A DNA stretch of 64,000 nucleotides from an uncultured Hyphomicrobiales bacterium (GCA_964467455.1 CAYXQJ010000017.1:6520-70519); one strand, 5' to 3'; shown: positions 8,563 through 61,285, numbered from the stretch's first letter. The notes: a model not told the origin generated them from the sequence alone. Numbers and translations are program-made.

Positions 8563-8729
8563 ATGTACGAGGCTGGCCCAACAACGAGTCAAGCCAGTTC
8601 GCGCCGTGGCGCACGCAACACGCACAAATGCCCACGGCCCTAAACACTGTTCCAAAAGCCCTGATGCGGTGGGGCAGGGACCGCACCAGGGGGCCGGCCG
8701 GTTTGGGGCAGCCGGTTTATCGTTTAAGG

Positions 8730-8802
8730 AGCTAGCTGCGGGACTCGAACTCGCAACCTGCCGATTACAGATCGGCCGCTCTACCAATTGAGCTACGCTA
8801 GC
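8730..8802 (-). tRNA. tRNA-Thr(UGU)-like gene with atypical features
   Basis: Hand-folded cloverleaf: acceptor GCTAGCG/AGCTAGC, D arm GCTC-AATTGGTA-GAGC, anticodon arm GCCGA-TCTGTAA-TCGGC, variable loop AGGTT, T arm GCGAG-TTCGAGT-CCCGC. Irregularities are C at position 33, a G7.A66 mismatch and an A52.C62 mismatch. No encoded CCA. Confidence 0.55.
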
Positions 8803-35003: not shown

Positions 35004-36863
35004 CTATCGCACTCCTGCCAGGCTACTGCCGCTGCGGTTCTGCGGGCCGAGGCCGACGTAACTGCGGCCGTTCATGCCGCGATGCTTCTCGCGTTTCTCG
35101 CGGAGCGCACGAAGCGCCCACGTTTCAGTCGCTTCGGGTCGCGGCTGCTCGTGGTATTCGGGCTTGTCGAGCGCGAGGTATCGCATGTTGTCGAGCAAGT
35201 GATCGTTCCGCTTCACCGGCTTGTCGGTGACGAAATCCTTCTCGCGCTTGTAGGAGTATTTGCGGAACTCGTCCTCGAGTGCCGGGCACTTCTCGCGCAT
35301 CACACGCAGTCGCGGCACACCACGCTCGTTGATGCGGAGCAGGTGCCGCACGGCCTCGATGCCAGCATTCACGTCGTCTTGCCCCCACTGGTAGCCGTGG
35401 CCGGTGAGTGTGCTGCGGATGCCCCGCTTTTTCAGCGCCTCGCCATACTGATATTCGACGGTGAGGCCGGTACCCATCTCGGCAACCTTGCCCATATGGC
35501 CGTCGATCAGGAACTTGTAGAACTGCATGCCGTCGGCTTTGCGAAGTACGTTGTCGCCGTACTTGTTCGCGTCGCAGTTTCGCAGGTAGAGTTCGTCGTA
35601 AATGAAGATTTCGCCGAGTTTGGCGTAGTCGTCGTCTTCCGGTGGCAAGGCAGCGAACAGCACAGCGCACACCTGCCGGCCGGGATCGGTAATCATGTAT
35701 CGCGTCCAGTTGCGCGGAACCTCGAACCAGTCGATCCCGTGGATCCGCATGTCGAATTCCGGGTAGACGCGGAAGCCGAGGATCGCCGGCTTGCCGTGAA
35801 CACGGACTTCGCGCTCTTCTTCCGAGAGCTTGTCAGCGAAGATCTTCTTCTGCTCGTCGCTGATGTACGGGTTGTCAGCCAGCAGGAAGTCGAACCGCTG
35901 GATGCGCGGATTCTCGACACCCGACTCGAGCAGTTCATCGGCGTCGGCCAGCAAGTCGTAGAACTCTTGCGTGCCGATCTGGGGAGTAGCAGACCAGAGC
36001 AGGCGGCCCTCGCGATCGAGGAGGCGGGCCGACATTTCGGGATACCACTCGTTGTTGATGATTTCTTCGTCGAACAAGACGAGATCGACATCGACACCGT
36101 TCGGCGGAATGCCTTCGCTCGTGTTGAAGACAATCTCCCAGCCGTTCTTCAACGTCACCTTCGAGGGCGATCCCTCCTTCTTGTTATTCCAGGCAATCCC
36201 CTTCCACCCACCCTGAATAAACCGTGCAGGAATAAGTGGCGGTGCTGGCTTTCGTTCATTCTTGCGATGCGAGTCCGTCCACGGGCGGTAGGTGCGCCAC
36301 ATGCCGGTCGTTTCATCACGGATGATCCAGAACGCCCCGGCCTTGAACAACTTGCGGAAGGCAACTTCGGCCACCTCCTTGCCCGTCTTGCCGATGACGA
36401 AGCAGCGGCCGTTCTCTTTCGGGTATTTGTCGAACGGATCCTGCCCGGTGACGGCTCGAGCCACTTCGACGCAGGTGGTAAGCGTCTTGGCCGATCGATT
36501 CGAACCGACGGCCAGGCACTCCGGTGCCCGCGAGGCGTGAAACTCGGCGGCCCGCGGCAGCGGTTCATAAAGCTTGAGCGATTCGATCGCCCGTTTCGCC
36601 AGTTCGCGTGCGGCCTTCACGAATCGCCGCAGTTGGTAGGCAGATGGCGGTGGCTTGGGAATGGAACCGGGCAGTGCGGCGGGGATCGCTGACTGCACCA
36701 ATGCGGCAGCCTGGCTGTCGGCAGACGGAACCTGCTCGCGAGGGGGAGGCAGAACGTGCTCCTTCGGCGGCTGATTCGGCGGCACGGCCTGAGCGGCGGC
36801 GCGTAGATTCTGCGCCGGCGTTCGCCGTTTGCCGAAGTTCAGGCTGCCGTCGAATGGTGGCAC
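35004..36863 (-). CDS. terL: terminase large subunit
   Basis: Walker A-like GSNRSAKT, Walker B VDLVLFDEE, and an RNase H-like nuclease half (MITDPGRQVCAVLFAA). GTG start sharing one nt with the TerS stop (TAGTG). Confidence 0.85.
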   Translation of the reverse strand: MPPFDGSLNFGKRRTPAQNLRAAAQAVPPNQPPKEHVLPPPREQVPSADSQAAALVQSAIPAALPGSIPKPPPSAYQLRRFVKAARELAKRAIESLKLYEPLPRAAEFHASRAPECLAVGSNRSAKTLTTCVEVARAVTGQDPFDKYPKENGRCFVIGKTGKEVAEVAFRKLFKAGAFWIIRDETTGMWRTYRPWTDSHRKNERKPAPPLIPARFIQGGWKGIAWNNKKEGSPSKVTLKNGWEIVFNTSEGIPPNGVDVDLVLFDEEIINNEWYPEMSARLLDREGRLLWSATPQIGTQEFYDLLADADELLESGVENPRIQRFDFLLADNPYISDEQKKIFADKLSEEEREVRVHGKPAILGFRVYPEFDMRIHGIDWFEVPRNWTRYMITDPGRQVCAVLFAALPPEDDDYAKLGEIFIYDELYLRNCDANKYGDNVLRKADGMQFYKFLIDGHMGKVAEMGTGLTVEYQYGEALKKRGIRSTLTGHGYQWGQDDVNAGIEAVRHLLRINERGVPRLRVMREKCPALEDEFRKYSYKREKDFVTDKPVKRNDHLLDNMRYLALDKPEYHEQPRPEATETWALRALREKREKHRGMNGRSYVGLGPQNRSGSSLAGVR

Positions 36864-40079: not shown

Positions 40080-41201
40080 CTAGGTGGCGTAGTTCTCGAG
40101 CTTGCCCTGGAATCGTGGGTTGGCCTTGAGGTTGCCGTAGAAGTCGATCGACATGCGATACGACTGGCTGCCCGGATCGAAATCGGGGCCCTCGGCAACG
40201 AACAACTGCTTCTGCCACGAGAGCAACTGCAGGTGGTCGATGTTGATGCCGTAACCGGTGTTGGCCGGCATGCCGTATTCGCTGGTGATCTCGGCACCGT
40301 CGAAGTTGACGGTATCGCTGAAACCGAAGCTCATCAGCGAACCGGTCGGCGAGCCCTGCTTCGACAGGAACCGCTCGTTGTCGTCGAGCAAGTTCAGGAA
40401 GTCGATGTACAGGGACTTCTCGAGCATGACGAGATCCATCATGCCCTTCTTGGTTTTGTTGCGGTGCGAGTATTGCAACAGGAAGCGAACCGCCTCCTTG
40501 CCCGTCACACCGAAGGTGTCGCCCGAGGCCGCCCAGCCATCGCTGGACCAGTTCACCAGCAGCGGCGACCACGAATCGTAGGACTGATCGACGCTCGCGA
40601 CACCGTTCGGGAAGCTACCCGTCCACGTGCCGCCGAGGCCGCCGAGTGCGGTGGACAAACCGGCGTAGGTGGCGCTGGGAGCAGCCACCAAATCGGCGGC
40701 AGTTGCGGAACGCTCGGCACCCGTCGAGATATTGATCGTGTTGCCGGCATCGGCCAGGAAACTCTCGAAGCCGTGAATTCGCTTCGAGTTTCCGGTGGCA
40801 TTGCCGTCGATGTACATTTCATCGCAGAAGGCGTCTTCGAAGTCTTCCCGCTGCGTGTCGGCGAGTTCGGAGAAGAACTTGACGATCGCCTCCGTGCCCT
40901 TGTTCATCAGCCGCTCTTTCTTGGTGGCCGATTCGCCCGCGATGTAGCCGCGGATGTCGAGTTCGGCAACCTTCCAGCGGTTGCGGCGAGGGAAGGCGAG
41001 CGTGTCGGCATCGCCAAAGCCCATGAGCGGGGCACGCTTGTAGCGCACACGCCAGTCGATGCCCTTGCCGGTGCATCCGTACTTCACACGGCCGCGCCCC
41101 TGCAACAATGCAGTGAGCTTGCGGTTGCGCATGATGTTGGCTTCTTCATCGCGCAGATGATTGTTGATCGTCGTGTTTGTTACACGTGTCCACTCAGCCA
41201 T
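40080..41201 (-). CDS. major capsid protein (373 aa)
   Basis: Size and position after the scaffold-like gene. GGAG upstream of the ATG. The sequence pattern is typical of HK97-fold capsids as I recall them. Not verified. Confidence 0.7.
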   Translation of the reverse strand: MAEWTRVTNTTINNHLRDEEANIMRNRKLTALLQGRGRVKYGCTGKGIDWRVRYKRAPLMGFGDADTLAFPRRNRWKVAELDIRGYIAGESATKKERLMNKGTEAIVKFFSELADTQREDFEDAFCDEMYIDGNATGNSKRIHGFESFLADAGNTINISTGAERSATAADLVAAPSATYAGLSTALGGLGGTWTGSFPNGVASVDQSYDSWSPLLVNWSSDGWAASGDTFGVTGKEAVRFLLQYSHRNKTKKGMMDLVMLEKSLYIDFLNLLDDNERFLSKQGSPTGSLMSFGFSDTVNFDGAEITSEYGMPANTGYGINIDHLQLLSWQKQLFVAEGPDFDPGSQSYRMSIDFYGNLKANPRFQGKLENYAT

Positions 41202-42857: not shown

Positions 42858-43457
42858 ATGGCACCATCGTCGCGTCGAAAACTGCAGCAGATGAAGGCTC
42901 GAGCCAAGATGCTCAGCCGCGCCGGACTATGCCGATCGTGTGCGATAAACCCAGTCGCACTCGGCAGCCGCAGATGCACCAACTGCCTCGAGAAAGAACG
43001 CGAACGCTCGCTCGAGCGGTACCGCGAACTACACCCCAACGCGAATCGCGTCCCCAGGGAGCCAAAAAATCGACCTGCCCCACCACCCAAACCCGTGCCG
43101 CGCGAAAAGCTCGCCACACCTCAGCCACAGCCCGCCGCAGACACCACCGAAGATCTCATCCCCAACCCCGACATCCCGCCCGGCGCCCGCGTCATCGCCG
43201 AATTCCACTGCCCACTATTTCCACTCCCCAACTACTGCACCTTCGTCGATCAGCCACTCCCGCCCGAAATCGCCAACGCCATCGCCAATCGACACACCAC
43301 ACCCCCCGACACCGACCCAGAAACCCCCGAAGCCTACCGCGGCACCGGACTCGAGCTCCACGGCCCCGCACTCGCCGAATACCGCCGCATCCGAGCCATG
43401 CACGCGGCGGGGATCTTCGACGTGACGTCACCCGAGGCAGAAGCGTTCAAAATCTAA
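42858..43457 (+). CDS. zinc-ribbon protein with a Pro-rich C-terminal half (199 aa)
   Basis: CRSC-x13-CTNC near the N-terminus. Strongly C-ending codons. First plus-strand gene after the divergent region. Confidence 0.55.
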   Translation: MAPSSRRKLQQMKARAKMLSRAGLCRSCAINPVALGSRRCTNCLEKERERSLERYRELHPNANRVPREPKNRPAPPPKPVPREKLATPQPQPAADTTEDLIPNPDIPPGARVIAEFHCPLFPLPNYCTFVDQPLPPEIANAIANRHTTPPDTDPETPEAYRGTGLELHGPALAEYRRIRAMHAAGIFDVTSPEAEAFKI

Positions 43458-43501: not shown

Positions 43502-43697
43502 GGGTAACACAGATTACCTTCGAGGTTACCGTTTTTGGTTACCGGCATTCGCCGAACCCCAGCCACACCAACCACTTCGCCACGGCAACCGGTTGCCGCC
43601 GATGTTACCTTTCGTGTTACCTTTCGCACAGTTCGCACGCACGCCCCGCACGCCCCATATCACACCCAACAAGCCAGCCGTGTAGTTTCAAACTACA
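43502..43697. promoter_or_regulatory. array of GTTACC half-sites and palindromes
   Basis: GGGTAAC 43502, GATTACC 43512, GGTTACC 43524 and 43537, palindrome GGCAACCGGTTGCC 43584-43597, tandem TGTTACCTTTCG x2 43603-43626, palindrome TGTAGTTTcAAACTACA 43681-43697. Confidence 0.6.
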
Positions 43698-43828: not shown

Positions 43829-44134
43829 ATGGCCAAGAAAAAGAAGGCAACACCAGGCAAGCAAAAGAGCCGGGACTACCAATACTTCGATATGTGGCAC
43901 AAAGAGCCACGCAAACTGCTCGAAGAAATCGATGGCATGAAGTCGATCCTCACCACCTACGCCGAGGAACTAGCCAACGAAGGCGACTACCGCATGGCAA
44001 TGGCACTCGCAGTCACCAGCAGCCTCGCAACAATCGTCTACATCTTGGCACTAAAACAACTTCCACTCGAAAGCGAACTCAGCGACGAAGAAATCAGGGA
44101 CACCATCACAAGGGTTGAGCAACTGGCCAGTTAA
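43829..44134 (+). CDS. hypothetical protein (101 aa)
   Basis: ATG ORF with a Lys-rich N-terminus and a helical remainder. Weak SD. Confidence 0.5.
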   Translation: MAKKKKATPGKQKSRDYQYFDMWHKEPRKLLEEIDGMKSILTTYAEELANEGDYRMAMALAVTSSLATIVYILALKQLPLESELSDEEIRDTITRVEQLAS

Positions 44135-44340
44135 GACCGCCCAGGTTAACAGCGATTTGGGTCAAAAATTCCAGCCGCCGCACAAATACCCATAACGCGG
44201 GCTCGCGGGGCCGCCACCCTACCCCCTCCCCCCGTCCGCCTAACTGCCGACCATTGCCCAGCTTACGGTTGTCCTCGATTTCGTCAGCAACTACCGTGCC
44301 ACTGCCAGCCGTCAGGCATGCGTACCCAGCCCGAGGCGAT

Positions 44341-44380
44341 TTTTTGACTCATCAAAATTGCATTTTTGACTCATCAAAAT
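44341..44380. promoter_or_regulatory. two identical 18-bp palindromic operator-like sites
   Basis: TTTTTGACTCATCAAAAT at 44341-44358 and 44363-44380 (22-bp period). Each contains TTTTGA-ctca-TCAAAA and a TTGACT hexamer. Confidence 0.6.
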
Positions 44381-44426
44381 CTCATCACAACCTATTACCC
44401 CTCATACACTTGCAAGGTTTCAGCAT

Positions 44427-44600
44427 AGTGGTGGGGGCTGGTGTGGAATTGTGGGGGAATAGTGGTGGGGCAGGGGGAGAATAGGGGGCTGGTGCGGTGG
44501 TGGTGTGCGGTGTGGTGTGGCTGGCATCATGCCAGTGGTGGGGCAGTGGTGGGCTGGTGGGCTGGCAGTGAGCTCGGCTGGCTGGCTGGCAGTGGTGGGG
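44427..44600 (+). repeat. G-rich decamer repeats with G-quadruplex potential
   Basis: AGTGGTGGG(G/C) at 44427, 44461, 44534, 44545 and 44591. G4-5 runs at 44433, 44453, 44467, 44473 and 44484. Palindrome CTGGCATcATGCCAG at 44521-44535. Confidence 0.8.
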
Positions 44601-44631
44601 CTGGAATTGAATCGGAATAGGTCACGAATAG
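44457..44631. repeat. GAATAG iteron-like hexamers (4 copies)
   Basis: GAATAG at 44457, 44479, 44615 and 44626. Spacings of 22 and 11 bp within the pairs. Confidence 0.7.
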
Positions 44632-44651
44632 CAGTGATGGGAGATCGGATT

Positions 44652-44909
44652 ATGGGTGGTGGTGGGAAGCGTAGGCGGGTTGTGAAAGCGCGCAGGGGGT
44701 TGGCGGCAATGCCGGCCGAGCGGTTGGCGGAAGTGGCACGGGCTGGCGGGCTGGCTGCGGCGGCAAGCTTGGGTGAGCTCGGCCGGCAGGAGCGGGCGCG
44801 CGCAGGCGGGCTGGCAATTGCTGGTCGGCCGCGGCGGCCGGGCGGCGGGCGGCCGAAGGGGAGTAGGAATAAGGTGAAGCCGGACGAGCTCGATCAGGCT
44901 AGCGAGTAG
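44652..44909 (+). CDS. small basic protein with AT-hook-like GRP motifs (85 aa)
   Basis: ATG at 44652 with GGAG 8 nt upstream (alternative ATG at 44637). GGGGKRRRVVKARR...GRPRRPGGGRPKGSRNK. The upstream part of tracked ORF 44505.. is the G-rich repeat. Confidence 0.5.
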   Translation: MGGGGKRRRVVKARRGLAAMPAERLAEVARAGGLAAAASLGELGRQERARAGGLAIAGRPRRPGGGRPKGSRNKVKPDELDQASE

Positions 44910-44917
44910 CTGGCAGT

Positions 44918-45034
44918 CTATTCGGGGGCTGTTGGTGGGCTATTCCGGGCCCGTTGGCTGGGCTGGCGGGAAAGAATTTTGGGAGTATTTGAGTGCTGTT
45001 TTTAGGCTATTCGGTGGCTATTCTTGGCCTATTC
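44918..45034. repeat. CTATTC iteron-like hexamers (5 copies), inverse orientation to the GAATAG set
   Basis: CTATTC at 44918, 44940, 45007, 45018 and 45029. The last three have an exact 11-bp period (GGCTATTCGGT GGCTATTCTTG GCCTATTCTGA). Confidence 0.75.
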
Positions 45035-45142
45035 TGAAAATATAAGCTTGCAATGGGGACGGACGGACGATAGATTTTCGGTGTGGGCTGGCGAGCACTA
45101 CCGCCGGCCGAGAAGTAGCACTAGAGAATGGGAGATTGGACA

Positions 45143-45388
45143 ATGGCCAAGAATATTGAATTCGCTTGGCGGTACGAACAATGGCAGCGCGATTGTTTGG
45201 ATGAGTACAACGAAAGATTCTGCGAAAATCGGGAATACTGTGAACCGCCCGAGCATGATGTAGACCCAGGCCTGATTGTCGAATTCGGTGAAGACGGGTC
45301 CGCCTATCCGCACGGCATTGGTGGCACAAGCCATATTCCCGATGCCGTGAAGCCATGGCGAGAATCAGAGTGGTTTGTAGCACGGTAA
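45143..45388 (+). CDS. hypothetical protein (81 aa)
   Basis: ATG at 45143, 6 nt after GGGAGAT (MAKNIEFAWRYEQW). Confidence 0.55.
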   Translation: MAKNIEFAWRYEQWQRDCLDEYNERFCENREYCEPPEHDVDPGLIVEFGEDGSAYPHGIGGTSHIPDAVKPWRESEWFVAR

Positions 45389-45401
45389 CGCGCACCGATC
45401 T

Positions 45402-45432
45402 AAGCGCCGTTGGGGTTGCGGCGCTTTGTTCG
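45402..45432 (+). terminator. Rho-independent-type terminator
   Basis: 8-bp stem AAGCGCCG (45402-45409) / CGGCGCTT (45419-45426) followed by TGTTCGG. Confidence 0.5.
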
Positions 45433-45505
45433 GTATGCGTTTACGATCGATCGACGGATTTAGGCGCGCATCACTACTCGCGCCGCCACTATGGGAGATC
45501 AGACA

Positions 45506-46156
45506 ATGGCCAGTTTGTTCGAGCGGTATCGGCCGCGCGTATGGGGTGATGTAGTTGGGCAGGACAAAGCGGTGGGGATTGTTGAGAGATTGCGCGGTGG
45601 GGCTGGGCTGGGTGGCCGAGCGTTTTGGCTGGCTGGGCCCAGTGGCACGGGGAAGACCACGATTGCGAAGCTGATTGCGGCCGAGCTGGCGGACGATTAT
45701 GCGACGGAGGAAATCGTCGGGCGCGATGTTTGCGCTGCGGATTTTGCGCGATGGGCGCGGCAATTTAGGATTCGGCCGATCGGCGATAAGGCGGGCTGGG
45801 CGATTGTCGTTAATGAAGCGCACGGTGTGCGCAGGGATTGTATTGAGAGATTTTTAGACTTGCTGGAAACATTGCCGCCATTTGTGGTGTTTGTCTTCAC
45901 GACGACGAATGATGGGGCTGACCGGTTATTCGACGAACAAGCTGACGCGCCGGCTTTCGCTAGTCGGTGTGTCAGTTTGCCGATGGCGCGCCGAGATCTG
46001 GCGAAAGCTTTCGCCGAGCGCGCCCGGGAGATCGCGCAGGCGGAAGGATTGGACGGCCAGCCCGTGGAAGCTTACGTAAAGCTTGCGCAGAAGTATAAGA
46101 ATAACTTCCGCGCAATGCTGGGGGAGATTGAAAACGGCGGAATGCTGCCGGATTAG
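45506..46156 (+). CDS. AAA+ ATPase, clamp-loader (RFC small subunit / DNA polymerase III gamma-tau) like
   Basis: LFERYRPRVWGDVVGQ, Walker A GPSGTGKTT, Walker B IVVNEAH, and the SRC motif (FASRCVSL) typical of clamp loaders. ATG at 45506, 6 nt after GGGAGAT. Confidence 0.75.
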   Translation: MASLFERYRPRVWGDVVGQDKAVGIVERLRGGAGLGGRAFWLAGPSGTGKTTIAKLIAAELADDYATEEIVGRDVCAADFARWARQFRIRPIGDKAGWAIVVNEAHGVRRDCIERFLDLLETLPPFVVFVFTTTNDGADRLFDEQADAPAFASRCVSLPMARRDLAKAFAERAREIAQAEGLDGQPVEAYVKLAQKYKNNFRAMLGEIENGGMLPD

Positions 46157-46285
46157 GTAGGGAATAGGGCCCGATTGTGCGCCGCGGGGTGGTAGCGCGG
46201 CGCCATGTCGGTTCCTATTGGGGTGGACAATTGCGGGCCGCGCGCGTCACTACCGCGCCGGGCCGCCACTATGGGAGATCAGACA

Positions 46286-46537
46286 ATGGCGCGAATTGAA
46301 ATGGCGCTGCACTACCCATTAGGTGGTAACACAATCAAAGTTTTTCGTGACAGCCCACTATTCGATGGGCGCAGGTGGTGGCAGCTCGGGGATAGCGCGC
46401 TGCGGGAATTGTACGTTTGCACTTATGAGCTCGGGCCCGTCGATGATCGAGGCGAATATGATGGCTCGATTCGGCAATGGGCAGCGCAGGCGCGCGAGTT
46501 GGTGGACCGCCATAAGGGTTGTGTTTTTGTGTATTAA
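46286..46537 (+). CDS. hypothetical protein (83 aa)
   Basis: ATG at 46286 in a leader identical to that of 45506 (a 29-bp exact repeat). Confidence 0.55.
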   Translation: MARIEMALHYPLGGNTIKVFRDSPLFDGRRWWQLGDSALRELYVCTYELGPVDDRGEYDGSIRQWAAQARELVDRHKGCVFVY

Positions 46538-46581
46538 CGGGCCCGATCGGGCCGCCACTACTACTACGGGGAGATCGAGCG

Positions 46582-46833
46582 ATGAAAAGCGCGGCAGAAT
46601 CGAGATTGCGCGGCGCGGAGCTGGTTGAGCACTTGAATCGAGCACTTGCCAGCGGGCGCACGGTTTGGATTTTATCCCATCTTCGCGCGTGGGAAGTATC
46701 AGCGAAGACAGCGGCGAAGTGGGAAGCCAGCGGGCGCCCTATCTTCAAGGCGAGCGCGGATGGCGCGAACGCGCTTATGGGCCAGGGCAAGGACTACGTG
46801 TGCATCGATTGGTCGGGCTGGCGGATTGTGTAG
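46582..46833 (+). CDS. hypothetical protein (83 aa)
   Basis: ATG at 46582, 6 nt after GGGGAGAT. Confidence 0.55.
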   Translation: MKSAAESRLRGAELVEHLNRALASGRTVWILSHLRAWEVSAKTAAKWEASGRPIFKASADGANALMGQGKDYVCIDWSGWRIV

Positions 46834-46848
46834 GTGACAGGGCCCGTC

Positions 46849-46890
46849 GCGCGCCGATCTGCCAGGCGGCGCGCCATCGGTTTCTGTTTC
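46849..46890 (+). terminator. GC hairpin plus T-rich stretch
   Basis: GCGCGCCG (46849-46856) / CGGCGCGC (46867-46874), then GGTTTCTGTTTC. Confidence 0.45.
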
Positions 46891-46917
46891 GGGGAGCACT
46901 ACTGAGGGAGATTTACC

Positions 46918-47154
46918 ATGTCGATCGAAGCATATAGCGCGAACGAAGTACGCGAGGGGCTGGAGCTGCCGGCCGATTGCCATTGTGAATGCGACGGCTG
47001 CCACGCGGAGGCGCCATGCTGGGTGGACCTGCGCGAGCCTGGTGAGTGGGCGTATTGCGAGAAGTGCTGGACAAAAATCGCGTGGAAGCTCGAACGGCGC
47101 GCGGCACAGCGGATTACAGCTCGCGGGTTCCGCGACTTTGAATATCTGGACTAG
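46918..47154 (+). CDS. Cys-rich putative zinc-binding protein (78 aa)
   Basis: CHCECDGCH...C...CEKC. Preceded by the cassette. Confidence 0.55.
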   Translation: MSIEAYSANEVREGLELPADCHCECDGCHAEAPCWVDLREPGEWAYCEKCWTKIAWKLERRAAQRITARGFRDFEYLD

Positions 47155-47171
47155 AAACCTTCCCGCCAACG

Positions 47172-47192
47172 GGCCGCGAGGGGCGCGCGGCC
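47172..47192 (+). terminator. GC hairpin after the gene
   Basis: GGCCGCG (47172-47178) / CGCGGCC (47186-47192). GGTTTCC lies 13 nt downstream. Confidence 0.35.
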
Positions 47193-47238
47193 TGCTGCGG
47201 GGCGGTTTCCAGCAGCACTACAAAGGGAGATCCGAACA

Positions 47239-47487
47239 ATGGCACGATTCAACGAAGGAGATCGCGTCGAACTAATCAGCGCGACGATGGTTTACGGGCC
47301 GCCATTCGACTTGAAGACGAAGCAACCGGCGCCACAATTCGGCCGGCAGTGGCGAATGGTTGGCGAGATCGGCACAGTCGAGCGCGTTATCGGCGGCCGG
47401 CTGCTGGTGCGATTTGAGAACGGCGGCAAGTATGCAGGGGCCTGGGTGGACGTGGATAGGGTCCGGGCGGTTGCGGCTGCAAAATAA
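47239..47487 (+). CDS. hypothetical protein (82 aa)
   Basis: Preceded by the cassette (MARFNEGDRVELI). Confidence 0.55.
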   Translation: MARFNEGDRVELISATMVYGPPFDLKTKQPAPQFGRQWRMVGEIGTVERVIGGRLLVRFENGGKYAGAWVDVDRVRAVAAAK

Positions 47488-47574
47488 TTAGCTTGCAATA
47501 GCCCCGCAGCACGATAGGATTAGGGGCGAGGGTTGGTTGAGCACTACTTACCACGAACGAAGGGAGATCATGCG

Positions 47575-47757
47575 ATGCGATTGACGATCACGATGGACCT
47601 GGACAATGCCGCGTTTGAGGATGGAGGCGGCCAGGAAATCACGCGGATATTGACAGACCTATGCCGCAAATTGCCCGACGAAATCTGCGAAGGCAATCGG
47701 GCACTGTTCGACATCAACGGCAACCGCGTAGGCACGGCCGAGATCGTCCAAGGCTAA
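47575..47757 (+). CDS. hypothetical protein (60 aa)
   Basis: ATG at 47575, 6 nt after GGGAGAT (MRLTITMDLDNAAFEDGGGQEITRIL). Confidence 0.5.
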   Translation: MRLTITMDLDNAAFEDGGGQEITRILTDLCRKLPDEICEGNRALFDINGNRVGTAEIVQG

Positions 47758-47761
47758 CGCG

Positions 47762-47801
47762 ATCCCGCGGAGGGCCGCCACGGTGGCCCCGAGCATGGGT
47801 T
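47762..47801 (+). terminator. conserved post-gene hairpin element, copy 1
   Basis: ATCCCGCGGAGGGCCGCCA..GGCCCCGAGCATGG directly after the stop, followed by GGTTTCGTTTTGC. A second copy is at 49251. Confidence 0.45.
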
Positions 47802-47835
47802 TCGTTTTGCTGAGCACTACCAAAGGGAGAACACG

Positions 47836-48237
47836 ATGACGATTCAGGAATTTATTGAGCAGGCAAACTTAACGATGAGCGTCGAATATGCGGCCAGCAA
47901 CCCACACATGGAGGAGGATCGCAAGCATCCGATGGATCACTGGGCGTGCCGGATCACTGACGGCGCGAACGTGATGGAGCTCGTTTTCTCCAAGGGCCAG
48001 GGCCATCACAGCGAAGAACCGCAGCTCGACGAGGTTCTAGATTGTCTGGCAAGCGATGCGGCCAGCATTCAGGACGGCGCCAGTTTCGAGGATTGGGCCG
48101 CCGATCTTGGGTACGACACGGACAGCCGCAAGGCTGAGCGCACGTATCAGGCCGTGAAGGATCAGGCCGAGAAGTTGCGCGCGTTGCTGGGCGATGACAA
48201 CTACGAGCGTTTACTGTGGGAGATCGAGCGACTGTAA
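47836..48237 (+). CDS. hypothetical protein (133 aa)
   Basis: Preceded by the cassette. The SFEDWAADLGYDTDSRKAERTYQAV pattern recalls a widespread small phage protein family that I cannot name. Confidence 0.6.
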   Translation: MTIQEFIEQANLTMSVEYAASNPHMEEDRKHPMDHWACRITDGANVMELVFSKGQGHHSEEPQLDEVLDCLASDAASIQDGASFEDWAADLGYDTDSRKAERTYQAVKDQAEKLRALLGDDNYERLLWEIERL

Positions 48238-48252
48238 ACGCCACCCAGCCGC

Positions 48253-48282
48253 GGCGCCTCACCTGCAAGGGATCGAGGCGCC
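48253..48282 (+). terminator. GC hairpin after the gene
   Basis: GGCGCCTC (48253-48260) / GAGGCGCC (48275-48282), 14-nt loop. No clear U tract. Confidence 0.35.
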
Positions 48283-48317
48283 GAAACTGGTTCGCGTTTC
48301 CTGCGGAACACCACACC

Positions 48318-48713
48318 ATGCCACTACACCCACGATTTACCGCCGCTGACTTGCTCGCGCCGATCGGCAAACTTGTCTACTTGCGCCTACAACGGCGCGG
48401 GGGCAAGAGTTGCGGCGGTGTGGATGCCAGCGAAGCGAACGGCAGCGAGTGGGTAGCATTCGAGGGGACCGTGACGGACGTTGACGCGGCCGGCCGCGTG
48501 CGAGTCGAGCCAGTGGCCGGCGAGGGGTTCATCTGGGGCAGTGCCGCCAGTTTTCCGCTGGCGGCCGATATTGACGCAGCACTACTCCGGCCCGAGGCCA
48601 ATGCTCGCCTGGCAGGGCTGGGATTAAAAAAGAGCGAGCCGGGAGATCGAGGGGAAAGAGAAGATGGCACCGTATTCGGACGCCCAATTGAAGGAGATCA
48701 AGGCCAACATTAA
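48318..48713 (+). CDS. hypothetical protein (131 aa)
   Basis: ATG at 48318 (MPLHPRFTAADL). No cassette. Its 3' end overlaps the next gene by 50 nt. Confidence 0.4.
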   Translation: MPLHPRFTAADLLAPIGKLVYLRLQRRGGKSCGGVDASEANGSEWVAFEGTVTDVDAAGRVRVEPVAGEGFIWGSAASFPLAADIDAALLRPEANARLAGLGLKKSEPGDRGEREDGTVFGRPIEGDQGQH

Positions 48714-48864
48714 GAAGATGGCCGCCAATAAGCCGCATTTGGTGCGCGAGCGAGTTGGGTACTACCTGGACTTGGCGACGGACGCGCACGAGCGGAACGA
48801 CGACGCGACTTGCTACGAGTGGATACAGCACGCGAAGGAGCAGGCGCATCATCGGCACGGGTAA
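48664..48864 (+). CDS. hypothetical protein (66 aa)
   Basis: ATG preceded by GGGAGATCGAGGGGAAAGAGAAG. Confidence 0.5.
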   Translation: MAPYSDAQLKEIKANIKKMAANKPHLVRERVGYYLDLATDAHERNDDATCYEWIQHAKEQAHHRHG

Positions 48865-48912
48865 GACGGGCAAGAGTTGAGCACTACCAAAGCACTACGG
48901 GAGATTGAAACC

Positions 48913-49245
48913 ATGAACACGAACACGACGAGCGAGGCGAGCGCCGCCACTACGCCGATAACGATAACCGGCAGGGCGCTGACACCCTACGCGCTGCCGA
49001 TGGTGCACCTCGGCGGGACTTCGCGGGGCCGACTGATTCAACAACGAACGATGGCCGCCCATGCCGTCGAAATGGCCGCCAAGGCCGTTGAAATGACCGC
49101 ACCACTGCTGAAAGACTTTGTTTTATATGAAGACGCTACGGCCCGGCTGGAAGTGGCCAGGATCGCCACGGCGGCGCGATTGAACACGCTGGGCGAGATC
49201 GCACGGCAGTTGATGGCCGAGGCCGAGGCAATCGAGAAGCAGTAA
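48913..49245 (+). CDS. hypothetical protein (110 aa)
   Basis: ATG at 48913, 7 nt after GGGAGAT. Double CACTAC box upstream. Confidence 0.55.
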   Translation: MNTNTTSEASAATTPITITGRALTPYALPMVHLGGTSRGRLIQQRTMAAHAVEMAAKAVEMTAPLLKDFVLYEDATARLEVARIATAARLNTLGEIARQLMAEAEAIEKQ

Positions 49246-49250
49246 ACCCC

Positions 49251-49290
49251 ATCCCGCGGAGGGCCGCCAAGCGGCCCCGAGCATGGATTG
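49251..49290 (+). terminator. conserved post-gene hairpin element, copy 2
   Basis: ATCCCGCGGAGGGCCGCCAAGCGGCCCCGAGCATGG. Perfect stem GGGCCGC / GCGGCCC. Confidence 0.45.
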
Positions 49291-49344
49291 GGTTGACACA
49301 GCCCCGGTGTTCAGGGGCAGGACGCTTTAGACTGGGAGATTGAC

Positions 49345-49698
49345 ATGACGACGAAAACGACAAAGGCCAAGGTAACACTGGCTGAGCGTGAGGATGTCGC
49401 GCGCGAATACGGCTTTGATGGAGTGTTAGCAATCGTGGATCACGAGACGCACGGCCGGCTACTTATCGCTGACGGATACGGAGGAGAGGGCCAGCCTCGC
49501 GGCGGTTGCGTGCGATGGGAGCACGGTGGCGTGTGGCAGCTCAAGTCGAACGACACGCTCCAGTCGCTCCGAAACGGCGAGTGGAACGACTGTGCGACAT
49601 TGCTTGATGCCGTGTGCCACGGCGAAGACCGATCGCGGCCCGTGCTGGACTTCTCCGGCAACGCGATCGCTAACGTAGCAAAAGCCGCGGGCCTGTAG
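49345..49698 (+). CDS. hypothetical protein (117 aa)
   Basis: ATG 4 nt after GGGAGAT. Confidence 0.55.
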   Translation: MTTKTTKAKVTLAEREDVAREYGFDGVLAIVDHETHGRLLIADGYGGEGQPRGGCVRWEHGGVWQLKSNDTLQSLRNGEWNDCATLLDAVCHGEDRSRPVLDFSGNAIANVAKAAGL

Positions 49699-49744
49699 TC
49701 CTTTTTTGTACCGACAACAGCACTACTCAAACGGGAGATCGAGG

Positions 49745-51733: not shown

Positions 51734-52022
51734 ACCGACTGGTGTAGCGGCAAGCGTCGTGCAGACTGTGTATGTCACGGAAGTCTGGCGAAAGATGCTC
51801 GGCGACAGCCCGAGCGTCGATGATCCGATCATCGAAGATCCAAGGAAGCCGAAGCCAGTTTTGAATGACAACGAGGCCGCCGAGAAGATGGCCGCGTGCG
51901 GCAAGGCCGACTCAGAAATAGGCCACGGCATGGCAGATGATCTGCTCTGCGAAATCCTCATGAGCCTCGGCTACACCAAAACAGTCGAGGAATTCCACAA
52001 GCTCCACAAGTGGTACGCATGA
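51714..52022 (+). CDS. hypothetical protein (102 aa)
   Basis: ATG with GAAAGGA upstream. 20-nt overlap with the previous gene. Confidence 0.5.
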   Translation: MDSKPNKPTGVAASVVQTVYVTEVWRKMLGDSPSVDDPIIEDPRKPKPVLNDNEAAEKMAACGKADSEIGHGMADDLLCEILMSLGYTKTVEEFHKLHKWYA

Positions 52023-53017
52023 TCCAGCAAATCTCCACCGCCCCGGTGCGGCAGCCGATCGCCTACGGCTACATCCGCATGAGCACGCTGCACCAGGAAC
52101 TTTCGCCCGAGATCCAACGCGAGCAAATCGAGGCCGCGTTTAAGTACCGCTTCGAGCCCAAGGGGTACGTGTGGGGCGGCATCTTCGAGGATCCCGCCAC
52201 GTTGGGCAAAACTCACTTCCGCGAGCGGCCGGCGGGGAACGAGCTCTACCTGCGATTGCAAACTGGTGACGCGATCATCATTCAGCGCCCCGATCGACTC
52301 TGCCGCAAGCACTCCGATCAAATCCGCCTGATCGAAGATCTGTGCGAACGCAAGATCATGATCCACTCTACCCAGTGGAACCTAGAAACCAGCGACGGGC
52401 CCGGGCAGTTCATCTTCAACATCATGGGCGCCTACTCCCAGTGGGAGAATCAGGTGCGATCGGAGCGCGTCCGCGAGGCCATGCAATATTTGAAGGCGCG
52501 GGGCCAGGCCACCAGTTCACACCCCGGCTACGGCTGGAAGTGGGAAGGCTACAAGCGGGTGGTGTGCGAGCGCGACTTGAAGATTATGCACGACGTCGTG
52601 GCTTGGGTAGATAGCGGCTGGTCACTCGCGGTAATCGCCCAGCACTTAAACAGCCATGGGTTCTTCAATCGCAAGTGGAAACGCGAGCACGGCCGCAAGG
52701 GTGGCATGTGGCGATTCGAGTGGCGCCCGTGGACCGACAAGCAAATCAAGCGGGTGTACGACGCCGAGCTGCAACGTCGCGCGGATCTTGCCGCGGGCAA
52801 CGAGACGCCGGAATCAAGGGCCGCCACGATGAGTGACGTGGATCGCATGCGGGCCCAAACGGACGGGATCAGCGGTGCCGAAACTATACGGCACGAGTCC
52901 GAAGTATTGCGGGATCAAACTGCTGACGTAAATGGTCGGCGAGCGCCGCTTGACTATGAACAGGAGATGCCGGTTCAGTGGCCTCGGCCAGATGCGGCGG
53001 ATTCAAGTGGCACTTGA
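52019..53017 (+). CDS. serine recombinase (resolvase/invertase catalytic domain plus recombinase domain)
   Basis: AYGYIRMSTLHQ (catalytic Ser), IIQRPDRLCR, SQWENQVRSERVREA, then GYGWKW. ATGA overlap start at 52019. Confidence 0.85.
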   Translation: MIQQISTAPVRQPIAYGYIRMSTLHQELSPEIQREQIEAAFKYRFEPKGYVWGGIFEDPATLGKTHFRERPAGNELYLRLQTGDAIIIQRPDRLCRKHSDQIRLIEDLCERKIMIHSTQWNLETSDGPGQFIFNIMGAYSQWENQVRSERVREAMQYLKARGQATSSHPGYGWKWEGYKRVVCERDLKIMHDVVAWVDSGWSLAVIAQHLNSHGFFNRKWKREHGRKGGMWRFEWRPWTDKQIKRVYDAELQRRADLAAGNETPESRAATMSDVDRMRAQTDGISGAETIRHESEVLRDQTADVNGRRAPLDYEQEMPVQWPRPDAADSSGT

Positions 53018-58015: not shown

Positions 58016-58498
58016 CCCAGGGCCTCCAAAATGCCCAGCATCGCGAGGGCATCGTGCCCGGGTGGCTTCCGTGAGGAGTCGGCCGGCTTCTATTACACTG
58101 CCGGCGACCATGAAATAAGGACTTAAGTTCTGTTTTACAAGGCATTACACCCGACTGTAATGATGCAAGTGGTTTGATGGTATCAACTTGCGTCAAAAAA
58201 TGGCCCCTCATTACACCTTACAGTTCCAGAGAGGCATATATATATACCCCCCTCCCCATACTGACATTTGTTCACCTACTGTACTGATGTACTAATGGGG
58301 GAACTTGTCTATATATGTGTGTTCTCTGTAATAGTGTAATACCTACTACTACTTACTTACTTACTACTTACTACTTACTACTAACTACTACTACTACTAC
58401 TACTTATATCTACTGCCATCGCCACAAGTCGGATTACAAAGATGCGCAATGGTGGTGTAATGGGGTGTAATCGGAAGACAGGAGGCATGGGCAGTCAG
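58016..58498. promoter_or_regulatory. AT-rich repeat-rich intergenic region (candidate origin and/or promoter region)
   Basis: CATTACACC at 58143 and 58209, facing GGTGTAAT(G/C) at 58454 and 58464 and GTGTAAT at 58334. ATATATATATA at about 58236. Microsatellite at 58343-58406. Confidence 0.55.
58343..58406. repeat. (TAC)n/(TACT)n microsatellite
   Basis: ctactactacttacttacttactacttactacttactactaactactactactactactta. Confidence 0.9.
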
Positions 58499-61285
58499 CT
58501 AGTAGGAGTCGATTTCTGTGTGAACGATGGGGGATTTGGTCTCCCCAATCAACGCATCGATCGACGCCTGCGGGATCGTGATGCCCCTGGCTGCGTGCGA
58601 GAGTGCCGTCACGGTTCGCTTCGCCCCTTTGATACGCAGGAGGATTTGGGAGATGTCCTGCTCGGCGTATGGGGTGCGCGACAGGAGCTCGCGGCGAATG
58701 CTGCCGTGAGAGAAGAACATTGCCGGGGGATCGAGGTGATCCATGATCCGAATGCCGTTCGAACGAAGTATCTGATCCCTGGCGCCAACATCGCCCGTGT
58801 TGGTTGGCATGGCCGCCCCGCTAATGACGTCGCTGATTGTCACCTTCTTCCCACCCGGCATGATGATTGTGGTTTCGTAGATCGTACGCATTAGCCGCTC
58901 CTCGTCGCTCTCCTCTTGAGCGGACAGATCGCGCTCCCCCAGCCACAGCCGCAGGTTGCCGGTCGTCTCCTCGAGCGTCATGCCATACGCACAGCCGATC
59001 AGCGAGGCGGGTGCCGAGAAGGATTCCACGATCCGGCGATCTGTGGCCAAAGGTACCTGGCGGATCTTGTCGGCCATTTCGATCGCTTTGGGGGCGTTCC
59101 GGATGGCCACGGCGAGTAGCTTCTGCCCCAAAGCTGTCAGTTCAGCCTTGGGTGGCAGGGTAAGCTTCGAAGGGCTGCCTGGGGGCAGGTTCTCGAGATC
59201 GAGCATGATGAACCGGTTCCGGTCGGCAGCGGCATGCAGGCCGAGTTCGATGGCCCCCACCCAGGCGATATGCTGCAGGCCGAAGCTGATGCCCCGCTGG
59301 TTCGACGTCCCGCGGAGCGACTTGCCGCCGCGGCCGGCCGTGCGGAGCATGTTGAGAATGCCTACCCGGTGCTTGTCGTCTTCGAACTCGTCCGTCAGGA
59401 TCACCTTGGCCGTGTTCCGGATGGCGTGGCGAATGCCGGCTTCGGTGGACTTCGAGTTGAAGCAGGCCAGTTTGCCGAACATCACCTGCAGGCAGTCCTC
59501 GAGCAGCATGCTCTTGCCCGATCCGGACGTTCCGGTGACGCCGACTTGCGGCCGCCAGCCCCACAGTGTTTGAACCCAGGTGGCCATTACGAGGCCGGCG
59601 ATGAGGCTCGGGTTGCTCGGATGGCGCCAGTTGTCCCAGCGGCCGAACAACTGGGTGGCTTCTTCCGCGACGGTCTCGCACCACCCCGGGGACGCCGCGA
59701 GCTGCAGTAGGCTCGCCAGGTGGGCATGGTCGTACCATGGCTCGGCAGCAAAATCGACACGGCGCCCGTGCACAGCCGGCGCTGAAAACCGCTCGAGCGT
59801 CTTGCCGTCCCACACGTCGCACGACTTATGGCCGACGAGCACGGTGTCCTCTTTGACGTGCCACACCCCAGCCCCGATGGCCGGCTCTCGATCGAGGAAC
59901 TCCCGGCCGCAGAGATCGGCCAGGGCCGTGCGAACGTCGTCGATGTGGAACTTCCCGTTGCCAGCCTCCTCGCCGCGCTTAAGGATGAATCGATCGACGA
60001 GCTCGTTCCCCATGTCGCGCACGGCGTGCACGTACGTGTAGTGCTGCGGATCCTTGATGCGCGACTTCTTGCACAGGGCCTCGGAATAGATCTCGAGATC
60101 GCCGGTGTCTTCGAACTGCCCGGTGGCGATCACCTTGAGGCACTGCAGGATGGCCTCGTGCTTGCTGAGCTTCTGGCTTTCGTCGTCGATGGCGATGGCC
60201 TCGGTGGCGTCCGCCAGCGCGAGCAAGTCCTTAAAAGTGCGCCGTTCCCCCTCTATTTCCTCCCCGAAATAATCCCGGATATCCTTGCCGTGCTTCGGCT
60301 CGATGGGGTACGGCAGTTGGATGTTCTTCACCGCCGCAGCCACGTTGATCACGGCCTGCACCCACACCTTCGCGGCTGCCTGGCCCGGCTCGTCGGCGTC
60401 CATGCAGATGTAGACTTGCTTGCCGGCGAAGTGCTGGATCCATTCCGGCCGCGGGTGGTAGCTACAACTGCCTGTGGTGATGACGACATGATCGGTGTCG
60501 AGCCATTCGGGGATCATCGTCTGCATGGTGAGCATGTCTGGCAGACCCTCGCAGATCCAGACGACTCGAGCATTCTGCAGGTGCTTCAAGGCGTGGACGT
60601 TCATCATCCCGGGGGGCAGGCCGGGTGTGACCAGGGTGATCGTCTTGAGCGGTTCGCTGTCCTTCCCCTTGCCCTGGTATTTCAGCACGCTCTCGCCCGT
60701 GCTGTTTACTCCTTGGTAGCTATGCACGTCGCCGTCCAGTAGCTTTTCGCCGAACGACGGGAAGACGATGAGGGCCTGTTGTCGATCGTGCGGGGCATTG
60801 GCCGGGTAGTGGGCCCCAGTACCACCGCACTTGAGGATCGCGGCGGCTTTGATCGGCGGCTTCTTGGCCGCGTAGCCGACGAGCATGCCAGGCGAGGCCG
60901 GGAATAGCGTAACCTTGTCGGTGGCCACACTGTCGGCCGACTTCGGCAGTTCGAACTTGAGATCGGCTGCGAATTTCCGGCGCGCGTCACGCCAGGTCGG
61001 GCCGTAGCCGCCGACGTTCTTTGCCGCGAACTCGAAGATCGACTGGCTAACGGCATCGCCGCCGAAGTCTTTGTAGCGGCCGCGCAGCCCGTCACCGCCG
61101 ACGTTGATCGCCGCCGAGGGGTTGCTGTCCTCGCGGCCGTAGGCGTGGCACTTTAGCCAGCCGGAAATGTTCGGCGTGCCGTTGCGATCGAATCGCACGC
61201 CGGCCGAGGCGTAGAAGTCTTCGATATTGGTAAGGGCAAGAAGCTCCCGATGGGCCTCATGCCATTGTGTCTTTACGTCAGCCAT
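58499..61285 (-). CDS. bifunctional DNA primase / SF3 helicase (TOPRIM plus P4/D5-type ATPase)
   Basis: KCHAYGREDSNPSAAIN (primase zinc-finger-like), TOPRIM VWICEGLPDMLT and YICMDADEPGQAAA, Walker A GTSGSGKS, Walker B VILTDEFED. Confidence 0.85.
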   Translation of the reverse strand: MADVKTQWHEAHRELLALTNIEDFYASAGVRFDRNGTPNISGWLKCHAYGREDSNPSAAINVGGDGLRGRYKDFGGDAVSQSIFEFAAKNVGGYGPTWRDARRKFAADLKFELPKSADSVATDKVTLFPASPGMLVGYAAKKPPIKAAAILKCGGTGAHYPANAPHDRQQALIVFPSFGEKLLDGDVHSYQGVNSTGESVLKYQGKGKDSEPLKTITLVTPGLPPGMMNVHALKHLQNARVVWICEGLPDMLTMQTMIPEWLDTDHVVITTGSCSYHPRPEWIQHFAGKQVYICMDADEPGQAAAKVWVQAVINVAAAVKNIQLPYPIEPKHGKDIRDYFGEEIEGERRTFKDLLALADATEAIAIDDESQKLSKHEAILQCLKVIATGQFEDTGDLEIYSEALCKKSRIKDPQHYTYVHAVRDMGNELVDRFILKRGEEAGNGKFHIDDVRTALADLCGREFLDREPAIGAGVWHVKEDTVLVGHKSCDVWDGKTLERFSAPAVHGRRVDFAAEPWYDHAHLASLLQLAASPGWCETVAEEATQLFGRWDNWRHPSNPSLIAGLVMATWVQTLWGWRPQVGVTGTSGSGKSMLLEDCLQVMFGKLACFNSKSTEAGIRHAIRNTAKVILTDEFEDDKHRVGILNMLRTAGRGGKSLRGTSNQRGISFGLQHIAWVGAIELGLHAAADRNRFIMLDLENLPPGSPSKLTLPPKAELTALGQKLLAVAIRNAPKAIEMADKIRQVPLATDRRIVESFSAPASLIGCAYGMTLEETTGNLRLWLGERDLSAQEESDEERLMRTIYETTIIMPGGKKVTISDVISGAAMPTNTGDVGARDQILRSNGIRIMDHLDPPAMFFSHGSIRRELLSRTPYAEQDISQILLRIKGAKRTVTALSHAARGITIPQASIDALIGETKSPIVHTEIDSY

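Follow-up and report, generated by a model that had tools for sequence, protein, structure and literature searches.

Facing arrays of a helically phased hexamer surround an open reading frame for a small AT-hook-like protein in tailed-phage DNA

Results

Phased hexamers face each other across a small open reading frame

We found nine identical copies of a hexamer, GAATAG, arranged as two facing sets around an open reading frame for an 85-residue basic protein, which we call p85, in a 64,000-nucleotide stretch of DNA deposited under an uncultured Hyphomicrobiales bacterium (GCA_964467455.1, CAYXQJ010000017.1:6520-70519). This whole stretch is referred to here as the window; its gene content identifies it as the genome of a tailed phage or a large portion of one. 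The arrangement is statistically solid, it is unusual and it occurs in a poorly known group of phages. We favour, with a probability of roughly 0.4, the reading in which p85 is an early autoregulatory or architectural DNA-binding protein that has its own phased sites and controls early or replication genes.

Four copies of the hexamer point rightward and lie to the left of the open reading frame; five point leftward (CTATTC on the + strand) and lie to its right. All nine stand exactly where the original prediction, made from the same DNA, had placed them. Degenerate copies in the same phase lengthen every cluster, so that the unit and its outlier consist of the following features:

44446..44484, + strand: L1, left distal array; GAATTG 44446, GAATAG 44457 and 44479; 11- and 22-bp spacing, strong boxes 22 bp apart
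44604..44631, + strand: L2, left proximal array; GAATTG 44604, GAATAG 44615 and 44626; 11-bp phase
44637..44655, + strand: translation-initiation motif ATGGGAGATCGGATTATGG; Shine-Dalgarno sequence GGGAGAT, 6-nt spacer, ATG at 44652
44652..44909, + strand: p85 gene, 85 amino acids
44918..44945, - strand: R1, right proximal array; CTATTC 44918, CTGTTG 44929, CTATTC 44940; strong boxes 22 bp apart
44985..45034, - strand: R2, right distal array; five 11-bp units, GTATTT 44985, CTGTTT 44996, CTATTC 45007, 45018 and 45029
46140..46167, + strand: outlying weak array; GAATGC-N5-GATTAG-N5-GAATAG across the stop codon of a clamp-loader-like gene, with CAATAG on the - strand at 46215

L2 ends 5 nt ahead of the start-signal motif of p85, R1 starts 8 nt past the p85 stop codon, and R2 is followed by an A/T-rich stretch that continues to 45049.

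The hexamer is far more frequent here than local composition would give. In 2000 dinucleotide-preserving shuffles of 44420-45050 it occurred 0.19 times on average and 3 times at most, as against the 9 copies observed, and hexamers with at least four A/T bases peaked in those shuffles at no more than 6 copies. The whole window holds 35 copies, compared with 12.9 +/- 3.4 in shuffles, and 0 of 100 shuffles reached 35. Nine copies in 578 bp contrast with the 0.24 expected from the remainder of the window (Poisson 5e-12); when 35 sites were placed uniformly in 20000 trials, the densest 578-bp window never held more than 7. The perfect segregation of the nine orientations (p = 0.004) and the number of neighbour spacings that are multiples of 11 (5 of 8, p = 3e-4) bear out the helical phasing and the inverted, facing sets that had been proposed. 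Phased dimers of the form GAATAG-N5-GAATAG, with at most one mismatch, number six in the whole window against 0.05 expected. The sixth is GATTAG-N5-GAATAG at 46151-46167, one mismatch away and with GAATGC in phase at 46140; this weak array marks the junction between the clamp-loader-like gene and the next gene, 1.1 kb rightward of the main arrays.

Each GAATAG box is a 4-bp A/T core within G-rich DNA, and with their spacing of 11 or 22 bp the boxes all face the same side of the helix. Self-similarity at 11, 22 and 33 bp is present in both flanks (44420-44650 and 44910-45040) and absent from the body of the open reading frame. Between the left and the right side the hexamer alone flips, while the G-rich strand bias remains on the + strand across both flanks; the arrangement is therefore not a simple inverted duplication, and we rejected the inverted duplication of a larger segment as its origin. 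The pattern CTATTC-N5-CTATTC-N5-CTATTC was found at 62 loci in IMG/VR, none of them related to this phage.

The p85 gene heads a series of genes with a shared start signal

The 85-residue open reading frame and its GRPRRPGGGRPKG motif string are present between the arrays, as had been described. A 19-nt motif, ATGGGAGATNNGANNATGG, has four exact matches in the 64 kb against 0.08 expected, and all four stand at the starts of consecutive open reading frames: p85, p81, the clamp-loader-like gene and the gene that follows it. From 44639 to 49733, no fewer than 13 rightward genes have the shorter pattern GGGAGAT-N6-8-ATG in front of them, mostly with (G/C)AGCACTAC ahead of it (45093, 46894, 47213, 47539, 47812, 48577, 48879, 48890 and 49718). 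The series begins with p85: the signal is absent from the genes at 42858-43457 and 43829-44134, the two that lie left of it. As to its role, the shared GGGAGAT signal might be a promoter or start site specific to the phage, or else a site of processing or an operator of translation. A 32-nt copy is found at both 45479 and 46259. The CACTAT-GGGAGA segment resembles the promoter core of the T7 group, CACTATAGGGAGA; this interpretation was dropped because the large open reading frames of the window showed no domain of a single-subunit RNA polymerase.

The p85 frame scores best of the six, yet its codon score is near zero, as are those of its proven neighbours. Most of the strongest self-similarity lags in the p85 DNA are multiples of 3. 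The open reading frame is probably a real gene.

The p85 protein carries an AT-hook motif

The p85 protein has an isoelectric point of 11.8, with 20 lysine and arginine residues among its 85 and a short acidic end. A single-sequence AlphaFold2 model (predicted local distance difference test score, pLDDT, 70) places helices at residues 5-19 and 22-51, followed by a disordered tail, and contains no strand. In the tail, which is modelled without secondary structure at a pLDDT of 54-63, GRP occurs at residues 58-60 and 66-68. The tail peptide GRPKGSRNK matches the second AT-hook of HMG-I/Y (HMGA1; 2EZD). This is the sole sequence match in the PDB and has E = 1.2, so that the likeness is one of motif and does not argue for homology. 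With a GRP core, basic flanks and an unstructured segment, p85 has the features by which an AT-hook is recognised, and the description of it as an AT-hook-like basic protein is apt: this is a textbook AT-hook.

Residues 15-35 (RGLAAMPAERLAEVARAGGLA) resemble the repeat unit of two KGG proteins, a class for which no molecular function is known (phmmer E = 4e-5 and 9e-4, with 12 of 21 positions identical). These two weak matches were all that a full HMMER search of 1.84 billion representative proteins returned, and p85 falls below the Pfam gathering score for the KGG repeat (PF10685), with no Pfam match even at E values up to 10. A word-indexed search of 5.8 billion proteins found only p85 itself. 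There was no match in PHROGs, none by tblastn in 50,697 phage records and none in a back-translated scan of IMG/VR, while the PDB gave the AT-hook II motif match alone. The statement that the unit matches no nameable cassette therefore holds for p85 in protein, profile and phage-record searches. As p85 is without a homologue, comparative support is lacking both for the gene and for its pairing with the arrays.

The p85 motif is the signature of a family of phage proteins

A back-translated scan of viral contigs for GRPKGxRNK gave more than 120 hits, against a chance figure of about 10 that was estimated and not computed. The motif is the invariant N-terminal signature of DUF5681 (PF18932) and of phrog_8771, phrog_11043 and phrog_15261, small phage proteins whose function is unknown. 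Alignment of p85 with the DUF5681 family by hhalign covered 17 columns, the motif alone. The p85 protein does not have the full-length family organisation of an N-terminal motif and a helical domain ending in LPK, and it has no family match in Pfam or PHROGs. Nor does its gene adjoin the large terminase gene (35004-36863, - strand), which lies 8 kb away.

In three other phage contigs (L166, L151 and L219) a protein of 200-240 residues that bears the motif is encoded directly upstream of a large terminase-like open reading frame; in L166 that large frame matched phrog_2 and the next one matched a portal/connector family. In these three and in L223, hexamer arrays with direct and inverted copies precede the motif gene:

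L166, 1884-2230: upstream array
L151 and L223, reverse strand: arrays in the first ~200 nt upstream of the motif gene
L219, reverse strand: array ~320 nt upstream
Hexamer types across the four: CGTTCC/GGAACG triplets at 8-bp spacing; TGGAAC; ACAACG; CGGGAC eight times, then GTCCCG three times

It is possible that these arrays are packaging-recognition sites for DUF5681-type proteins. At least seven copies of one hexamer in the 300 bp upstream were found for 3 of 102 motif-gene regions and for 1 of 510 controls (p = 0.016), while over whole gene regions motif genes and controls did not differ in hexamer arrays; overall, GRPKGxRNK genes are only weakly associated with such arrays.

The arrays are embedded in a larger control region

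The unit had been called self-contained. Our findings show it to be not fully so: besides the weaker array 1.1 kb rightward, it forms part of a wider control region that has a 22-bp tandem repeat with palindromes and a 190-bp block of G/T-rich repeats.

44341..44384, + strand: A/T-rich 22-bp tandem, TTTTTGACTCATCAAAAT plus 4 nt in two copies, with TTTTGA-CTCA-TCAAAA in each unit; the left border of the control region
44420..44610, + strand: G/T-rich non-coding block of 190 bp with degenerate repeats, e.g. (C/T)AGTGGTGGGGC(A/T)GG and GGCTGG

The junction of the tandem forms an 18-bp near-palindrome (16 of 18 positions) at 44352-44369, and its hairpins have z = -2.5. The half-sites TTTTGA/TCAAAA resemble the hix half-sites of Hin and Gin, and the phage encodes a serine recombinase at 52010-53017. 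Contigs from the sequencing runs SRR15237804 and SRR15237806 break here: one ends at 44363 and the other starts at 44356, with an 8-nt overlap, AATTGCAT, whose centre is at most 1 nt from that of the palindrome. A cohesive end, a recombination core or a polymorphism could each explain the break. Independent assemblies of two sequencing runs reproduce the sequence from 44356 to 46507 at 100% identity. We rejected attP arm-type sites as an identity for the boxes, which lie on only one side of the candidate core, with recombinase genes 7 and 33 kb away.

GC skew switches at about 44350, from -0.35 before the tandem to +0.56 in the G/T-rich block, which has seven runs of at least four G, potential quadruplex formers, and a G4-like motif at 44453-44488. 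Three of the 12 quadruplex-like G-run motifs on the + strand of the window fall within the unit (44453-44488, 44639-44679 and 44924-44983), and in L1 and R1 the GAATAG boxes are placed between G-runs in the manner of loops. Segments of at least 70% A+T at 44336-44391, 44975-45004 and 45019-45049 make up 3 of the 13 in the 64 kb, and all are short (30-56 bp). A terminator-like hairpin lies 3' of p81. An Rfam search of 42.4-46.4 kb found no family. To the left, a cluster of GTTACC/GGTAAC boxes (GGTAAC 43503; GTTACC 43525, 43538, 43604 and 43616) occupies 43503-43626, in the non-coding stretch between a gene for a 199-residue zinc-ribbon-like protein and a gene for a 101-residue protein (p101), and includes a perfect 12-bp tandem, TGTTACCTTTCG, in two copies at 43603-43626.

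The phage and its relatives

The unit lies in a long stretch of non-coding DNA and small genes at the onset of the rightward early genes, and the neighbours of p85 are p81, in which no domain was found, and the clamp-loader-like AAA+ protein. The principal genes of the window are:

42575 down to ~11.6 kb, - strand: leftward block with head, terminase and tail genes
40080-41201, within the leftward block: major head protein
35004-36863, - strand, within the leftward block: large terminase, with tail proteins also in this block
42858 onward, + strand: rightward block of small genes, including the clamp loader and the serine recombinase
45506-46156, + strand: clamp-loader-like AAA+ protein
52010-53017, + strand, within the rightward block: serine recombinase
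58499-61285, - strand, opposite to the rightward block: primase-helicase
58092-58471: facing-array element; ATTACAC 58092, 58144 and 58210 (3 of 3 copies in the window), GTGTAAT 58334, 58455 and 58465 (3 of 4 copies)
8728-8802: tRNA-Thr (TGT)
10425-11312: 295-residue open reading frame, weakly similar to the N-terminal SAM-like domain of tyrosine integrases

The last of these and the serine recombinase would make two candidate recombinases for the phage. We could not confirm the identity of a 142-residue open reading frame upstream of the large terminase gene as a small terminase. The gene for a RecD/Dda-like helicase (85-2832, - strand) holds, in its 5' part at 2536-2657, about 10 copies of a 12-bp tandem, CCGCCGCCGACT, that would translate as a repetitive peptide.

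The clamp-loader-like protein has 216 residues, with Walker A, an SRC motif and sensor regions present and the collar domain absent. It defines a family (50-58% identity) across metagenome-assembled genomes (MAGs) of Planctomycetota and viral contigs (our L001-L006 and L071-L125). Through this homologue we recovered about 65 relatives from IMG/VR, metagenomes and genomes, all at 58% identity or less. Because they include MAGs of Planctomycetaceae, Pirellulaceae, Gemmataceae and Phycisphaerae, beside IMG/VR contigs and metagenomes, the host of the phage is probably a planctomycete. A nucleotide search of 43.8-46.2 kb against phage records gave no matches. The p81 homologues of two phage contigs (L131 and L132) have ordinary sigma-70-type promoters ahead of them, and the repeats there are different. 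In these contigs (L131 3700-3940; L132 860-1130) GCAAACTAT/CAGTTTGC boxes with 10-bp spacing, in both orientations, surround an A/T-rich early region, a layout analogous to the p85 unit and not homologous with it, in which every small early gene has its own upstream promoter of the TTGACA-N17-TAAGAT type.

Discussion

A small protein and its predicted sites

From the arrays with their phasing and orientation, the start signal of p85 and its AT-hook motif we infer the following course of binding, looping and regulation. In p85 a helical part at the N-terminus would be joined to a flexible C-terminal tail bearing two GRP minor-groove arms, or AT-hooks, and p85 oligomers would bind the phased, A/T-cored boxes along one helical face through these arms. 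L2 abuts the start signal of p85, and so its occupancy would throttle the expression of the protein. R1, R2 and the weak array at 46.15 kb would modulate the genes that follow (p81, the clamp-loader-like ATPase and the next small gene). Since the left and right arrays are inverted they would run parallel once the DNA folds back, which would permit the protein-bound arrays to pair and to enclose the p85 gene in a loop of 300-600 bp.

Several observations favour this role for p85. The arrays abut the coding sequence on both sides, p85 shares its exact start signal with three downstream genes, a terminator-like hairpin follows p81, and hexamer arrays precede motif genes in four other phage contigs. 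That a third, weak array occurs at a different intergenic junction of the early genes is more easily reconciled with a regulator than with a single origin. The original description of a DNA-binding protein together with its sites is reasonable in view of the arrays, the start signal and the AT-hook; that p85 binds these very boxes is a prediction from sequence.

Other observations weigh against it. The main weakness is that an AT-hook reads the minor groove of A/T tracts, which leaves the conservation of G1, A2 and G6 of the box, and of its orientation, without an explanation; the helical part of p85 or another protein must then supply the specificity. Arrays beside other motif-bearing genes are made of G/C-rich hexamers, so in those proteins the GRP arm is not the specificity element. 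Apart from its AT-hook and KGG-like motifs p85 is an ORFan, its codon score is close to zero, and some G-rich repeats of its DNA recur in the upstream non-coding block. A scan for sigma-70-type promoters and terminators near the arrays found nothing above chance and located no promoter. Conservation of the arrangement in relatives had been put forward as a check on the prediction, and p85, p101 and comparable arrays were found in none of the approximately 65 relatives linked through the clamp loader; as far as the databases go, the pair of gene and arrays appears to have no other carrier.

The unit is compact and can be cloned, being about 600 bp and one 85-residue protein, and it predicts binding of p85 to boxes in 11-bp phase and pairing of the inverted arrays. 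AT-hook arms are known mainly from eukaryotic chromatin proteins; here such an arm is the signature of a large uncharacterised phage family (DUF5681) and, if the favoured reading is correct, it would serve site-directed DNA organisation in a bacterial virus. To our knowledge phages of Planctomycetota are almost unstudied, and we know of no account of their early-gene control, replication start or packaging recognition. Should the predicted binding of p85 fail, the arrays would still mark the main control region of the phage.

A stronger version seems to us improbable. In it p85, with a helical oligomerisation part and AT-hook arms, would be a complete sequence-directed device for organising DNA that nucleates on the nine phased boxes, pairs the inverted arrays and loops its own gene, possibly as a master switch, or as an origin or centromere organiser, of a Planctomycetota phage. 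If true, it would be a minimal DNA-bridging system without a known relative.

Other explanations of the arrays

The explanation that comes closest is that another protein, a winged-helix regulator of the OmpR/PhoB/SARP type from phage or host, binds the boxes as activator or repressor sites of early promoters, p85 being a mere neighbour or not a gene at all; we judge it somewhat unlikely. Direct hexamer-N5-hexamer repeats are classic targets of tandem-binding winged-helix proteins, and the repeats at 11 and 22 bp have just this geometry. The base-specific conservation of the box suits major-groove reading more than an AT-hook, and box orientation would then indicate promoter direction. That p85 is an ORFan with weak coding statistics, and that the third array is distant from it, point the same way. 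However, the scan of window proteins turned up neither a winged-helix domain nor that of any other regulator, which leaves room for a regulator encoded by the host, and p85 has the early-gene start signal and a DNA-binding motif and is placed exactly between the arrays.

A replication origin, as the original prediction also suggested, is unlikely. On this view a phage initiator would recognise the boxes as its iterons, p85 would play an accessory part, and unwinding would take place in the A/T-rich flanks (44336-44391 and 44975-45049); transcription through the G-rich block could yield an R-loop primer, and the layout recalls mini-F and P1 (incC-repA-incA). Iteron-like phased repeats do stand beside three of the 13 most A/T-rich segments of the window, the GC skew switches sharply at about 44350, G-runs lie on the non-template strand, and genes of replication, among them the clamp-loader homologue, follow directly. 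Yet no Rep-type or other initiator is encoded next to the arrays, p85 has no Rep domain, and the primase-helicase gene is 14 kb away; no DnaA box (TTATCCACA, at most one mismatch) occurs between 30029 and 62519; the 6-bp core in 11-bp units differs from classical iterons of 17-22 bp; and a single origin would not account for the extra array at 46.15 kb. The most origin-like element of the window, and the more classical candidate, is the facing-array element at 58.09-58.47 kb; its two sets stand on either side of an A/T-rich (CTA/CTACTTA)n tract (58343-58414), and the primase-helicase gene ends, at its 3' side, close by.

It is more doubtful still that the region is a packaging site or genome end of the cosB or pac kind, in which the palindrome at 44352-44369 is cut, a small-terminase-like protein binds the arrays and p85 provides the GRPKGxRNK arm. 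The break of the two-run contigs almost at the centre of the palindrome would agree with it, as would the position of motif-bearing DUF5681-type proteins in L166, L151 and L219, in the place of a small terminase and behind hexamer arrays. Phage lambda offers an analogy: its cosB sites are situated between cosN and the small-terminase gene. Against this, p85 shares only 17 residues with the family and bears early-gene signals, the large terminase gene is on the other strand and has its own upstream candidate partner of 142 residues, and the contig breaks, in fragmentary assemblies, may equally reflect a recombination core or a polymorphism.

A centromere of a plasmid-prophage, with p85 as a ParR/ParG/omega-like binder and the arrays as parC- or parS-like sites, had been among the original suggestions and is very improbable: the geometry is comparable to that of R1 parC (where a small autoregulating protein binds 11-bp iterons in two sets) and of the heptads that omega binds in direct and inverted orientation, but neither beside the unit nor among the window proteins scanned was there a ParA, ParM or TubZ-type NTPase or another partition domain, the single-sequence model of p85 shows no N-terminal strand of a ribbon-helix-helix fold, and there is no sign of plasmid maintenance for this phage.

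Comparison with known systems

The second DNA-binding domain of HMG-I/Y (2EZD/2EZE) resembles the arm of p85. Residues 59-75 (RPRRPGGGRPKGSRNKV) align with TPKRPRGRPKGSKNKG, with an identical GRPKGS-NK core; the arm is predicted to lie in a disordered basic tail, and A/T-cored boxes one helical turn apart recall the binding of multi-hook proteins to phased A/T tracts. Unlike HMGA, p85 is phage-encoded, has 85 residues and a helical, KGG-like N-terminal part, and the A/T core of its box is just 4 bp, with conserved flanking G residues and an orientation that go beyond what an AT-hook alone reads. DUF5681 proteins share the invariant GRPKGxRNK and, in the four contigs described above, upstream hexamer arrays in both orientations. 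In that family, however, the motif is N-terminal to a conserved domain of about 60 residues that ends in LPK and the arrays are G/C-rich and on one side of the gene, whereas the p85 motif is C-terminal with no such domain after it and p85 is below every family threshold.

In OmpR/PhoB and SARP systems the targets are direct repeats of hexamers or heptamers with a period of 11 or 22 bp, often in place of the -35 element, but these winged-helix proteins exceed 200 residues and none was detected among the window proteins scanned. H-NS and Lsr2 are DNA-bridging proteins with an N-terminal helical oligomerisation part and a C-terminal AT-hook-like arm; within G+C-rich DNA they favour A/T patches, and they act as repressors by bridging two segments around a promoter. 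They have no relationship of sequence or fold with p85, and they combine a folded C-terminal domain with a loose site preference, in contrast to nine identical hexamers.

ParR-parC of R1 and the omega-heptad system of pSM19035 likewise have a small autoregulating protein and many short repeats around its own operon; parC is helically phased, and the omega heptads are contiguous and accepted as both direct and inverted repeats, the orientations seen in the p85 arrays. Both systems have a ribbon-helix-helix fold and encode a ParM or ParA NTPase alongside; the fold is not apparent in the single-sequence model of p85, and no such NTPase was found among the window proteins scanned. Mini-F RepE (ori2 and incC iterons) and P1 RepA (incC and incA) differ in the size of the protein (250-330 residues with two winged-helix domains, against 85), in their 19-bp iterons, against a 6-bp site core, and in the DnaA boxes that the p85 unit lacks. 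They do share with it a gene bracketed by two site arrays (4 + 5 in mini-F), and in them the bracketing arrays provide autoregulation and the array pairing known as 'handcuffing'. Set beside these systems, the p85 unit appears to be of a familiar kind, in which phased repeats of a binding site surround the gene for a small DNA-binding protein, while both the protein and the box appear to be new.

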